15,510 bases of DNA, taken from the IMG/VR virus record IMGVR_UViG_2585427727_000013; one strand, 5' to 3'. Numbering within the stretch: position 1 is the first letter of the stretch; the number at the start of each line of letters is the position of its first letter. A program made the position numbers and the translations under genes. Source of the stretch: a virus. Its lineage: Duplodnaviria > Heunggongvirae > Uroviricota > Caudoviricetes. Under the pieces are notes generated by a model. It was not told the DNA's origin. It saw only the letters and a list, made by a program, of their open reading frames with translations, and did no database searches. Positions 11,307-15,134 of the stretch are shown one piece after another.

Positions 11307-11435
11307 GCTGTATATGCAACGGAGGAAGAAACCTCGTTGCGGGAAGCCTGGAAGAAGTATCGGGTGTTGCTGAACCGTGTTGATACATCAACTGCACCTG
11401 ATATTGAGCGGCCTGTGAACCCTGTCAGGGAGTAA
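11307..11435 (+). pseudogene. tfa: 3' remnant of a tail fibre assembly gene (tfa): last ~40 codons only, no start
   Basis: Frame translates ...[39 protein letters not shown], matching the lambda Tfa C-terminus (...[24 protein letters not shown]...) from memory. An in-frame stop lies immediately upstream at 11304-11306. Confidence 0.6.
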
Positions 11436-11486
11436 TCATTGGGATTATGCCGCAGCACGTCTTAAGCAAGAACGTGCTGCGGTTGG
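11316..11486 (+). repeat. Direct repeat copy 1 (~170 bp): tfa 3' end plus downstream hairpin
   Basis: About 90% identical to 12365-12536 by eye. Confidence 0.85.
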
Positions 11487-11498
11487 ATGCTATTTTTT
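11450..11498 (+). terminator. Perfect 11-bp-stem hairpin with downstream T-run after the tfa remnant; possible terminator for the stf operon
   Basis: ccgcagcacgt-cttaagcaaga-acgtgctgcgg (11450-11482), then tttttt at 11493-11498. A degenerate copy lies inside repeat 2 near 12507-12536. Confidence 0.45.
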
Positions 11499-12158
11499 CC
11501 CTGAAGCGGAAAACATTACTACAGTACCTTGAACCTTGGTTTTAACATTCTCGAAATGCTCTGAGAGTATATGTGTTAAGCCTTCTTCGGAATCTTTTGT
11601 GTTTGAAAAGATGCCTTTCTGATTGTAAATGCGCATCAGTTTTTGACCGAAGCTATTGTGCACAACTCCATCGCCAAGAATTGTGGCTCCGTATAGAGTT
11701 CCATCGTCAGTTAAGGCCTGCGCCGCATTGCGTATTACACAGCTTTTTGTAGATATATTTCCAGGCAGGCAGTGAAGAAGGTAAAACATGGAAATGGAAT
11801 CAAATTGACCATGTAACGTCGCGGGATAAGGTTCAAAAACATCATGGCTAATTTTATGTTTAATTTTTGATTCCCCAGCCCTTGTAGATGCCGCGTTCAG
11901 GCTAGCTTCGTTCAAATCCATTAAAGATATCAGACTACTCTCAGGTACGTGAGTAAGGTAAAACCCAGTTCCAACACCAATATCCAGATGGTTGTTACCT
12001 AAATGTTCCAGAAAGTGTGGAAGAAGGTGTTCCTTTGTAGGACATCCCCATGCAAGCCGATTTGATACTCCCAAAACCCACCAGTCATAAAGCTTTAGGG
12101 TAAGTGGTGTGTAAATTTTAGCCCCATCATCTGTGTTTTTTTTCATTAATTTCACCAT
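11490..12158 (-). CDS. Class I SAM-dependent methyltransferase (moron), substrate unknown
   Basis: 222-aa ORF on the minus strand with SAM-binding motif I (LDIGVGTGFY) and an acidic post-motif region. Low GC relative to tail genes. An SD-supported alternative start is the fifth codon (ATG at 12146). Confidence 0.7.
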   Translation of the reverse strand: MVKLMKKNTDDGAKIYTPLTLKLYDWWVLGVSNRLAWGCPTKEHLLPHFLEHLGNNHLDIGVGTGFYLTHVPESSLISLMDLNEASLNAASTRAGESKIKHKISHDVFEPYPATLHGQFDSISMFYLLHCLPGNISTKSCVIRNAAQALTDDGTLYGATILGDGVVHNSFGQKLMRIYNQKGIFSNTKDSEEGLTHILSEHFENVKTKVQGTVVMFSASGKK

Positions 12159-12214
12159 GTTATAGTTTTATTTGTGAATTAAATCAATTACGGCGATGAA
12201 TTACAAGGGGTTAA

Positions 12215-12484
12215 ATGCTGCCGCAGCATAGCGATATTGAAATAGCCTGGTATGCTTCGATACAGCAGGAGCCGAATGGCTGGAAGACCGTCACCACACA
12301 GTTCTACATCCAGGAATTCAGTGAGCATATTGTGCCACTTCAGGATGCTGTAGATCTGGAGATCGCAACGGAGGAAGAAAACTCGTTGCTGGAAGCCTAG
12401 AGGAAGTATCGGGTGTTGCTGAACCGTGTTGATACATCAACTGCACCTGATATTGAGTGGCCTGCAAATCCTGTCAGGGAGTAA
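12215..12484 (+). pseudogene. tfa: 5'-truncated tfa fragment with an in-frame TAG (TGG to TAG) at 12398-12400
   Basis: Track ORF 12215..12400 ends ...SEHIVPLQDAVDLEIATEEENSLLEA*. The same frame continues [27 protein letters not shown] to 12484, matching the lambda Tfa C-terminus with W replaced by a stop. No Tfa N-terminal region is present. Confidence 0.65.
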
Positions 12485-12536
12485 TCATTGGGATTATGCC
12501 GCAGACACGTCGTATGCAGGAACGTGCTGCGGTTAG
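12365..12536 (+). repeat. Direct repeat copy 2 (~170 bp): tfa 3' end plus downstream imperfect hairpin
   Basis: Aligns with 11316-11486 base for base with scattered substitutions. Confidence 0.85.
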
Positions 12537-12600
12537 TTTGTGAGCTTTCGATAGTGCGAGTATTGAATGATTTCCAGCCGTTACCGATTTTACGTGCTAA

Positions 12601-12849
12601 TTAGTGAACAAACCACTCGTCAGCAGACTCCCAGGTATCTTTCAGAGTTTCCTGAACAAAAGTTTTAGCTGAATCTTTATCGGCGGTGCGCGTAACAGAA
12701 AGGCCATCGTTGCTGGTGGCTTTTACGATCACCTCTACATCGTCATAACGTTTACTGATGCGTCGGGTTAATTCTTCCTTTAACGCATCCACAGCACCGG
12801 TTGGCATTTTAGTCATTTTTTCTTTGGCTATGCAGATTTCAATACGCAT
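12601..12849 (-). CDS. dinI: DinI-like DNA-damage-inducible protein (82 aa)
   Basis: [11 protein letters not shown]...[11 protein letters not shown] has the DinI-family pattern (MRIE..IAK...GA.DAL..EL.RRI...TWESAD.WFV) as I recall it for E. coli DinI. SD agaggga. Two LexA boxes immediately upstream. Confidence 0.8.
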
Positions 12850-12862
12850 AAAAGTCCCTCTA

Positions 12863-12910
12863 TACTGTGTTTGTATACAGTGTTATTTTTAACTGTATGG
12901 ATAAACAGTG
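12863..12910. promoter_or_regulatory. Two tandem LexA (SOS) boxes in the dinI promoter region
   Basis: Box 1 at 12863-12882: taCTGTgtttgtatACAGtg. Box 2 at 12891-12910: aaCTGTatggataaACAGtg. Both fit CTGT-N8-ACAG. They lie 14-61 bp upstream of the dinI start codon and directly abut the integrase stop. Confidence 0.7.
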
Positions 12911-14008
12911 TCAAGAGGTCTTATTTCTGCTCTTTTGGAGCTCTTCAAAACGATTATGTAAAGATTTCGGATACAGTTCGGTATATACCTGCCATAGCAC
13001 GTTTAATGAACGATGTCCTGTAACTTGGGCGACTTCCTCAATACTAAAACCAGCCTCAAATAAGCGACTTGCCCCTTCTCTACGCAAATCATGGTATCGC
13101 AGATCTTTAATACCTAATTTGCTTCTTACCCTCTGAAATCCCGCAGTAACAGAAGTGCTGTTATATGGAAAAATGAATTCCGATTTTTGGGGCTGTCGTT
13201 GGACGATATCCCAGGCTTCCCCAAGCAAGGCTACTTTCATGTGGTTGCCTTCCTTTTTGCGTGGATCTTTCCTGTCTCTTACGAGTATAGATTTTTGTTC
13301 CTGGTCGAGATCTTCCCATCGTAACCGGCATACTTCTCCGATTCGCATACAGGACCACACAGAAAATTTGAGGATATCAACGAACGGAATTTTTGAGCAT
13401 TTATGAGTAGATCGTTGTTGAAGGCCTTCAATGAGCATGTCCAGTTCATCAGATGCTGGTCTACGATTACGACGGTTTGATTTACCAATCAAACCAAGTT
13501 TAAGTAGATATGGACGAGCGCTTTTCGCCGGGTTTGATGTGTAATTAATTCCGTATACAGGTTTAGCCGCATCCAGAACACTGCCAAGATAACTAACATC
13601 GTGGCTGACTGTTGCTGGACCTGCACCAGCGTTGTTTCTTAGCCTACAATGTTCAATTACGTCATTTTCTGTCAGTTCGGATAGTTTGATCGCGGAGATG
13701 TCACTATCCATAAGCAGTTCCAGCACATATCTTTTAGTACGACCTGCTTTACCTCCGGCATTTGAGTCATTTAAATATTTGTGTAGTAAGTCACGGACTG
13801 TAAGTCCGTCAACTGCATTTGATGATGGAATGCCATATAGATCTAATTCCATTACTTTCTGTGTACCCCATGTTTTGGCATGGGCATGTTTAGGGAATGT
13901 TTTGCTTTCCCTGTAAGTGATAACACCTTTTTCTTTGATAATCACATTACAGCGATAGCGTGGTGTGCCATCGGATTTTAGTCGTTTCTCTATGTTATAG
14001 TACGCCAT
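12911..14008 (-). CDS. int: Tyrosine-type site-specific integrase (dusA-associated integrase type)
   Basis: 365 aa with a C-terminal catalytic region carrying an HxxR box (RYHDLRREGASRLF) and ...VTGHRSLNVLWQVYTELY with the candidate nucleophile Tyr. 5' end is 88 bp from the dusA start, divergently oriented. Confidence 0.9.
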   Translation of the reverse strand: MAYYNIEKRLKSDGTPRYRCNVIIKEKGVITYRESKTFPKHAHAKTWGTQKVMELDLYGIPSSNAVDGLTVRDLLHKYLNDSNAGGKAGRTKRYVLELLMDSDISAIKLSELTENDVIEHCRLRNNAGAGPATVSHDVSYLGSVLDAAKPVYGINYTSNPAKSARPYLLKLGLIGKSNRRNRRPASDELDMLIEGLQQRSTHKCSKIPFVDILKFSVWSCMRIGEVCRLRWEDLDQEQKSILVRDRKDPRKKEGNHMKVALLGEAWDIVQRQPQKSEFIFPYNSTSVTAGFQRVRSKLGIKDLRYHDLRREGASRLFEAGFSIEEVAQVTGHRSLNVLWQVYTELYPKSLHNRFEELQKSRNKTS

Positions 14009-14028
14009 TACACGACCTCGTTATTTCG

Positions 14029-14063
14029 GGTTCCCATAAATCGTGGGAACCTGTGCGGGAACC
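14029..14063. promoter_or_regulatory. Inverted repeat ggttccca-N7-tgggaacc plus a third gggaacc half-site in the int-dusA intergenic region; candidate operator or recombinase-binding site
   Basis: Perfect 8-bp inverted repeat at 14029-14036 and 14044-14051; direct gggaacc repeat at 14057-14063. Lies in the divergent promoter region upstream of int and dusA. Confidence 0.35.
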
Positions 14064-14096
14064 TAACGCGAGAAAAATAGCCTGAAATGTTCAAAA

Positions 14097-15134
14097 ATGC
14101 ACGATAATCCTGAAACACAGAAAACTAATCAAACCAGCGTGATGCCTGAGAAAACTGACGCTTACGGGAGCTCTCGGTTTAGCATTGCTCCTATGCTCGA
14201 CTGGACGGACAGACATTGCCGCTATTTCTTGCGTCTGCTTTCCCGCAATACGTTGCTGTATACCGAAATGGTGACCACAGGGGCGATTATTCACGGTAAA
14301 GGTGATTATCTGGCGTACAGTGAAGAAGAACATCCGGTAGCGTTGCAACTCGGCGGTAGCGATCCGGCGGCGCTGGCGCAGTGTGCGAAGCTGGCAGAAG
14401 CGCGCGGATATGATGAGATCAACCTGAATGTCGGCTGCCCGTCTGACCGGGTGCAGAACGGCATGTTTGGGGCGTGTCTGATGGGTAATGCGCAGCTGGT
14501 TGCCGACTGCGTGAAAGCGATGCGCGATGTGGTGTCGATTCCGGTGACGGTGAAAACGCGTATTGGAATCGATGACCAGGACAGCTATGAATTTCTCTGC
14601 GATTTCATCAACACCGTTTCCGGCAAAGGCGAGTGTGAGATGTTCATCATCCACGCACGTAAAGCCTGGCTTTCTGGGTTAAGCCCGAAAGAAAACCGTG
14701 AAATCCCGCCGCTCGATTATCCGCGTGTGTATCAACTGAAGCGTGACTTTCCGCATCTGACGATGTCGATTAACGGTGGCATCAAGTCGCTGGAAGAGGC
14801 TAAAGCGCATTTGCAACATATGGATGGCGTGATGGTCGGGCGCGAAGCGTATCAGAATCCAGGCATTCTGGCGGCGGTAGACCGAGAGATCTTTGGTTCT
14901 TCGGATACCGATGCCGATCCGGTGGCGGTGGTGCGTGCCATGTATCCGTACATTGAGCGTGAACTCAGCCAGGGGACGTATCTCGGCCATATTACCCGGC
15001 ATATGCTGGGCTTGTTCCAGGGTATTCCTGGCGCGCGGCAGTGGCGGCGTTATTTAAGTGAAAATGCCCATAAAGCGGGTGCTGACATTAACGTGCTGGA
15101 ACACGCGCTCAAACTGGTGGCAGATAAGCGTTAA
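14097..15134 (+). CDS. dusA: tRNA-dihydrouridine synthase A
   Basis: 345-aa Dus-family protein with the catalytic-Cys motif ([21 protein letters not shown]). Followed by pspG, as in the E. coli chromosome. Confidence 0.9.

Follow-up and report, generated by a model that had tools for sequence, protein, structure and literature searches.

Gene content of the prophage end

The analysed DNA, a stretch of 15,510 nucleotides referred to here as the window, belongs to a lambdoid prophage of the mEp460 type that is integrated into dusA of Escherichia coli, and covers its right end; an earlier note on this sequence had likewise placed it in a prophage. Tail genes, J, lom and remnants of the side tail fibre and tail-fibre-assembly (tfa) genes are followed by dinI and int on the minus strand, with dusA and pspG beyond (Table 1). 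The segment from 12400 to 14100 is 96.7% identical to phage mEp460 and 99.9% identical to E. coli WP8-S18-ESBL-07. The att core GCTCCTATGCTCGACTGGA agrees with the motif given for the dusA attB of a related phage, phi-stx2dact (PMC6328086), and the first 100 nt or so of dusA are supplied by the prophage (window 14097-14200), dusA being reconstituted as in phi-stx2dact. Phages of this family have int on the tail-fibre side of attP, which places it next to dinI. Repressors of the S24 peptidase type are encoded by mEp460 and by the prophage of the best-matching genome; judged from that near-identical genome, the repressor of the window prophage would also be of the S24 cleavable type. The prophage of the best-matching genome carries an IS21-family insertion in the replication-gene region (L194 22414-24380) and several frameshifted genes, so that particular copy may be defective.

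A class I SAM-dependent methyltransferase gene (ybcY-like, phrog_2132; 11490..12158, minus strand) lies within window positions 11316-12534, flanked by direct repeats of about 170 nt with 94% identity (11316-11484 and 12365-12534), each of which carries a tfa 3' end and a hairpin. This cassette is absent from mEp460 and present in 3798 of 5426 E. coli genomes. Scanning detected neither a promoter nor a gene-strand terminator between dinI and the same-strand methyltransferase gene. Co-transcription of the two from the LexA promoter as a general operon was considered and dropped, because the cassette mostly occurs without an adjacent dinI. The only structured RNA returned by an Rfam search of the region was IS009 (RF02111; window 12238-12441, plus strand; 120.4 bits against a gathering score of 117), which lies over a tail-fibre-assembly pseudogene fragment. 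The dinI 3' region folds no better than shuffled sequence (z = -0.59).

Table 1. Features of the dinI-like unit and its immediate surroundings (window coordinates; sequences of boxes are given on the gene strand).
Feature	Position	Strand	Basis or remark
G+C-rich hairpin, 3' boundary of portable unit	12500..12533	.	Fold/terminator scan; homology block ends at about 12498-12507
DinI-like gene, 82 aa	12601..12849 (stop codon included)	-	Pfam, phrog_189, 1GHH, AF2 model
Shine-Dalgarno AGAGGGA, 5 nt before ATG	12855..12861	-	Read from sequence
Proximal LexA box CACTGTATACAAACACAGTA	12863..12882, core 12865-12880	-	HI 4.55 (approximate)
-10 element TAAAAAT	12885..12891	-	Promoter scan and mEp460 record; almost unchanged in close copies
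Distal LexA box CACTGTTTATCCATACAGTT	12891..12910, core 12893-12908	-	HI 4.81 (approximate); fills -35/-10 spacer
-35 hexamer TTGACA of dinI promoter	12909..12914	-	Sequence, promoter scan, mEp460 record
dusA-type tyrosine integrase, context	12911..14008	-	Pfam Phage_integrase 75.1 bits; directly upstream of dinI, outside portable unit
att core GCTCCTATGCTCGACTGGA within dusA, context	14183..14201	+	mEp460 homology stops at 14200

The DinI-like protein

The dinI-like open reading frame is intact and conserved, and its product is named 'DinI-like family protein' in RefSeq. Profile searches bear out the family assignment made in the earlier note: the Pfam DinI profile PF06183 was matched over positions 1-63 of 63 with 70.9 bits (cut-off 24.2), and phrog_189, 'RecA filament binding protein DinI', was matched at E 5.7e-31, the window protein corresponding to the C-terminal half of this 151-position profile. 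The protein also aligned end to end with E. coli DinI (PDB 1GHH, 7YWA) at E 3.7e-13. The AF2 model (pLDDT 74.9) contains strands at residues 2-8, 39-45 and 50-55 and helices at 19-32 and 59-81, a topology that is that of the DinI fold, an alpha/beta arrangement of about 80 aa with a long C-terminal helix as in 1GHH. The sole significant PDB fold matches of the model were 1GHH and 7YWA (TM 0.75-0.78, probability 1.00).

In the cryo-EM structure of the RecA-DinI complex, DinI residues L13, L21, W71, W77 and F78 form a pocket for F203 of RecA loop L2, and E24, E69 and D76 face RecA K232, R243 and K245 (PMC9926225). In the alignment, L13, L21, W71, W77, F78, E24, E69 and D76 correspond to M15, L23, W73, W79, F80, E26, D71 and E78 of the window protein, so that five of the eight contact residues are identical and three are conservative replacements. 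Against NF007893, the NCBIfam equivalog model for chromosomal DinI, the window protein scored 73 bits, below the curated cut-off of 111. By this measure it is a paralogous DinI-like protein and not the orthologue of chromosomal DinI, and since it falls below the equivalog cut-off and shares about 39-49% identity with DinI, its RecA affinity and net effect may differ from those of DinI.

Promoter and predicted LexA operators

On the gene strand, the layout of the 61-bp gap from the integrase stop to the ATG of the dinI-like gene is TTGACA CTGTTTATCCATACAG TTAAAAATAACA CTGTATACAAACACAG TATAGAGGGACTTTT ATG, with the TGA stop codon of the integrase (12913..12911) lying within the -35 hexamer. The gap contains a sigma-70 promoter: a consensus scan paired TTGACA with AAAAAT over an 18-nt spacer, 10 of 12 positions matching; the -10 element may alternatively be read as TAAAAA with a 17-nt spacer. 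The predicted 5' UTR is about 29 nt long and the ribosome-binding site is a good one. The earlier note had reported two well-formed CTGT-N8-ACAG boxes at 14-61 nt upstream of the ATG, abutting the 3' end of the integrase gene, and both the coordinates and the distances proved correct, the distal 20-mer starting on the first base after the integrase stop codon. The proximal box begins 2-3 nt past the -10 element and covers the predicted transcription start (near 12878) together with the early 5' UTR. From these positions, either bound LexA dimer would be expected to exclude RNA polymerase.

The boxes were scored with the heterology index (HI), as the earlier note had proposed, using an approximate matrix rebuilt from 30 E. 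coli operators of the Lewis 1994 and Fernandez de Henestrosa 2000 sets; the dinI site, alone among them, was verified in the K-12 genome. The rebuilt index correlated with a published HI table (PMC11228462) at r = 0.91 over 24 genes after removal of tisB, whose operator had probably been entered wrongly. With this approximate matrix the two boxes were the best LexA-like sites of the window at 4.55 and 4.81, more than 8 units ahead of all others, the next best 20-mer having an approximate HI of 13.2. Converted to the published scale, the approximate values become roughly 5.8 and 6.1 (+/- about 1.1), where recA is listed at 5.0, sulA at 5.4 and uvrA at 6.2, and proven sites range from 1.8 to about 13 (PMC11228462). 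Within the accuracy of the approximate matrix, both boxes thus have the properties of operators of the LexA regulon, being TACTGTATATATATACAGTA-like and within the proven HI range; they appear to score like the recA and sulA operators and far below, that is, better than, the weakest accepted sites.

Exact matches to CTGT-N8-ACAG occur three times in the whole 15.5-kb window, where 0.21 are expected, and none of 200 shuffled sequences reached three. The third match, at 580-595, has a G+C-rich interior and a poor HI score. That the two boxes are chance palindromes in an AT-rich spacer, preceding a gene that is constitutive or dead, is scarcely credible: two such boxes fall within 48 bp against 0.21 matches expected per window, no other window site comes within 8 HI units of them, across genera the half-sites persist and the interiors vary, and the open reading frame is intact. 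Repression of the dinI-like gene by LexA is strongly indicated by these features.

In a full-text literature search, the box sequences were encountered only as primer arms, and the literature searched contained no description of the two boxes of this dinI-like unit. For prophage dinI-like genes of E. coli, the sole expression evidence located was the statement of a microarray study that c0943 falls together with sulA, umuD and recN. The supplements of a ciprofloxacin study of EHEC yielded no expression evidence for prophage dinI-like genes.

Conservation of the operators

Copies of the unit on viral contigs with enough upstream sequence (n = 115) were reduced to 34 distinct upstream sequences. 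Upstream of the -35 hexamer these fall into sequence classes that are unrelated between contexts, and the copies align from TTGACA onwards. All 34 sequences but one retain both half-sites of the proximal box, CTGT and ACAG; nearly all retain the -10 element and the distal half-sites CTG(T/G) and ACAG, and the -35 hexamer is preserved as well. The N8 interior of the proximal box varies by lineage (ATACAAAC, ACATAACT, ACATCTAA). Half-sites that stay fixed while the interiors drift are the pattern expected of functional LexA operators.

In a collection with one genome per species, the order promoter, box, box, ribosome-binding site and ATG is also kept in homologues from Pantoea, Trabulsiella, Mixta and Erwinia, whose proteins are 59-72% identical to the window protein. 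Two boxes below an approximate HI of 9 are present in 12 of the 17 loci of this collection, and one strong box in the remaining loci. These comparisons show a two-box arrangement to be ancestral in this DinI-like subfamily. The box centres are 28 bp apart in the window and about 24 to 29 bp apart among homologues. Because the spacing differs by several bp, a strictly phased, cooperative contact between LexA dimers is disfavoured. The suggestion in the earlier note that dual boxes imply tight or cooperative repression therefore stands in its first half, which fits the positions of the boxes, and lacks support in its second.

In one viral contig (L101), the core of the distal box, 75 nt upstream of the dinI-like gene, is CTGTATAAATAACCAG, identical to the core of the chromosomal E. 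coli dinI box. This shared core in a diverged lineage hints that the phage promoter and operator may have been derived from those of chromosomal dinI.

Portability of the unit

Stx2c phages, phage 2H10 and others are homologous to the window only over 12499-12914 (92-96% identity), the block starting at the -35 hexamer; in five viral contigs it begins at 12915, one base before the hexamer. O157:H7 carries the promoter-dinI unit as the final gene of a prophage, ahead of ssrA, and has no integrase gene near it. At least 80% of the block is present in 1409 of 5426 complete E. coli genomes (about 26%), whether this integrase accompanies it or not, and matches to any part of the query occur in up to nine places per genome. 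The unit thus has its own promoter and occurs as a unit in otherwise unrelated phage contexts, as a moron does.

The distribution of the block bears on whether the operators serve the integrase instead. LexA would then block or end int transcription in the lysogen, so that read-through from int into dinI occurs in SOS only, or it would repress an antisense promoter directed into int. The absence of a terminator-like site between int and dinI and the overlap of the -35 hexamer with the int stop codon would suit such an arrangement. The promoter-operator block, however, starts exactly at the -35 hexamer and is found without an integrase beside ssrA in O157:H7, in Stx phages and in other genera, so the boxes travel with dinI and not with int; and no plus-strand promoter passed the scan, which speaks against an antisense promoter into int. 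This reading is quite improbable.

At its other end, the portable block stops about 100 nt past the dinI stop codon, at a hairpin (Table 1) with a T-rich tail on the plus strand only and no U tract on the dinI strand. The hairpin looks like the terminator of the converging tail-fibre (late) operon, and the terminator scan found no terminator-like site on the dinI strand. The position of this boundary also argues against the gene being the leader of a Gifsy-type LexA-controlled operon (dinI, antirepressor, irsA) in which the boxes really control the antirepressor. No open reading frame of at least 20 aa lies on the dinI strand between 12600 and the tfa remnant, and a downstream antirepressor of the Gifsy type was rejected for that reason. 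In other contexts the dinI-like gene converges on a tail-fibre gene or ends the prophage before ssrA, and the S24 cleavable repressors of mEp460 and of the best-matching prophage would make an antirepressor unnecessary. An operon of this kind is very improbable here.

An unannotated relic some 150 nt long, with 84-86% identity to the dinI 3' end and the sequence downstream of it (window 12507-12658), is found in most E. coli genomes, K-12 among them; in K-12 DH1 it lies between ykgJ and ecpE (L192 2501-2652). Enterobacterial-type dinI-like loci were also found in assemblies labelled Chryseobacterium sp. and Candidatus Saccharibacteria (L199, L203), where they probably represent contamination or mis-binning.

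Proposed role in the SOS response

The sequence anatomy of the unit, its family membership, fold, conservation and portability, as established above, point to an autonomous cargo gene (a 'moron') under SOS control that sits att-proximally in an mEp460-like prophage, and it is likely that this gene is silenced by LexA, induced by DNA damage and active on the RecA filament. The binding of LexA and of RecA, the induction by SOS and whatever influence there is on prophage induction are predicted parts of the mechanism. Two operators would be occupied by dimers of the host LexA in the lysogen, one between the -35 and -10 elements and the other across the transcription start, and the gene would be silent, with RNA polymerase excluded twice over. 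Upon DNA damage, activated RecA would lead LexA to cleave itself, and both operators would have to clear before the 82-aa DinI-like protein could be made from the strong -35 hexamer and the good ribosome-binding site. Insofar as derepression needs both operators to be empty, expression should be tight and relatively late.

The hydrophobic pocket of the DinI-like protein would then hold RecA loop L2 while its acidic C-terminal helix meets the basic patch. The RecA groove used by DinI is also used by LexA, UmuD and lambda CI, and RecA filaments are lengthened and stabilised by DinI (PMC9926225). Bound in this groove, the DinI-like protein would be expected to stabilise the filament and to compete with slow substrates of the groove, among them UmuD and a CI-type S24 repressor. 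The net effect would most likely be a blunted or delayed SOS mutagenesis and RecA-dependent repressor cleavage under sustained damage: given the S24 repressors of mEp460 and of the best-matching prophage and the shared groove, modulation of slow cleavage (of the repressor and of UmuD), probably as damping, appears likeliest. The proposal in the earlier note that a prophage DinI tunes RecA-dependent repressor cleavage is plausible, since relatives of the prophage have S24-type cleavable repressors and DinI and lambda CI share the RecA groove (PMC9926225).

The same regulation could also operate with the opposite sign, the prophage DinI mainly stabilising RecA filaments (an effect that DinI has at near-stoichiometric levels), prolonging SOS and promoting repressor cleavage, and thereby induction under severe damage. 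DinI does lengthen and stabilise RecA filaments (PMC9926225). The RecA-contact residues are all conserved in the window protein (identical or conservative), and two tight operators would limit expression to deep or prolonged SOS, when the phage gains by leaving. Against this, DinI and lambda CI share elements of the groove, and occupancy by DinI should hinder CI. Cleavage of UmuD is also reportedly inhibited by DinI, in the work of Yasuda of 1998 and 2001. A promoting effect is, on balance, rather unlikely.

Two further loci lie in the prophage of the best-matching genome. The first, in the nin region (L194 20098-20424, minus strand), encodes a 108-aa protein that is also present in mEp460 as mEp460_046. 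It contains a LexA DNA-binding domain (PF01726, 68.4 bits; E 2e-15 to 1LEA) without an S24 protease domain, and its recognition helix reads RSVNTAVEHLRAL, compared with RSPNAAEEHLKAL in LexA. Judged by its sequence, this protein might bind LexA boxes without being cleavable; a literature search returned nothing on a 108-aa protein with a LexA DNA-binding domain only. The second locus lies at the other prophage end (L194 35728-35900, NZ_AP022261.1), where three LexA-like boxes (ACCTGTGTATATGTACAGTC, TGCTGGTTATAAACACAGTG, TACTGTTTGCACATTCAGTG; approximate HI 6.4-7.9) come after a promoter close to consensus, TTGACA-16-TATAAT. Downstream are a SocA/Panacea-domain gene and a 182-aa open reading frame, adjoining the dusA 5' remnant, and the whole resembles another cargo unit beside att, putatively under SOS control.

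A more elaborate reading would make these elements parts of a switch shared by host and phage. LexA would keep the dinI-like gene off in the lysogen, and after induction the 108-aa protein would re-occupy its boxes, and possibly host SOS boxes, so that DinI is made in a short pulse that times cleavage of a CI-type repressor; the SocA/Panacea unit would be controlled likewise. The probability of this combined scheme is small.

The unit is present in about a quarter of complete E. coli genomes, and Shiga-toxin phages and O157:H7 prophages are among its carriers. Should the protein truly compete in the groove of RecA, a change in its dosage could alter SOS mutagenesis and the threshold or timing at which prophages (and Stx) are induced in polylysogens. 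The only published deletion test of prophage dinI genes concerns the Gifsy phages, in which removing the dinI homologues by non-polar deletion did not significantly affect induction (PMC3121763). Cleavage through RecA does not act on the Gifsy repressors, antirepressors being used instead, and that test therefore does not bear on CI-type phages, for which the present locus would be a convenient place to ask the question.

Comparison with known systems

One close counterpart is mEp460_021, the gene for a DinI-like protein in phage mEp460 (JQ182728); it is the same locus, with 96.7% DNA identity and the same adjoining integrase. The mEp460 record annotates a promoter TTGACA-N17-TAAAAA at the equivalent position and leaves the LexA boxes unannotated; the nearby methyltransferase cassette distinguishes the window prophage from mEp460.

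Chromosomal dinI of E. coli K-12 (b1061) shares with the window gene the fold, the RecA-contact residues and LexA regulation (predicted for the window), and it likewise lies in a short gap right after a same-strand gene, pyrC in K-12 and int in the window. The proteins differ, with 39-49% identity, as do the operators: K-12 dinI has a single box, ACCTGTATAAATAACCAGTA, over the -10 element of TTGTCA-17-TATAAA, whereas the window gene has one box in the spacer and a second at the start site.

The use of more than one LexA box per promoter is shared with the multi-operator SOS promoters of lexA, recN, ydjM and colicin genes. Repression is tighter and induction later when one promoter has several LexA boxes. 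The boxes of lexA and the colicin genes, however, are adjacent or overlapping, whereas the box centres are 28 bp apart in the window; the spacing of about 24 to 29 bp in the homologues argues against an interaction on a fixed face of the helix.

LexA-controlled phage genes with a DinI-like module are also represented by Tum of phage 186 and by the split tum/dinI of PSP3 and Fels-2 (PMC3121763). Tum fuses an antirepressor domain to a DinI-like half, whereas the window unit has neither such a domain nor a neighbouring gene of this kind. The dinI homologues of the prophages Gifsy-1, -2 and -3 carry a LexA box, and DNA damage induces them 4.6- to 23-fold (PMC3121763, PMC8072944). Like the window gene, for which the regulation is predicted, they are prophage-borne members of the DinI family with their own promoter and a LexA box near the ATG. 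They differ in having one box each, 19 nt from the ATG (PMC8072944), where the window unit has two, and in lying inside the prophage after the replication genes, at the head of an operon with an antirepressor and irsA (PMC3121763). The window gene is instead monocistronic and att-proximal, after the tail-fibre genes, in a phage family with a cleavable S24 repressor. The unit is thus a member of a common and already annotated class of phage cargo genes, with LexA-controlled prophage dinI known from the Gifsy phages of Salmonella, and its particular features are the two operators and the monocistronic, att-proximal layout.
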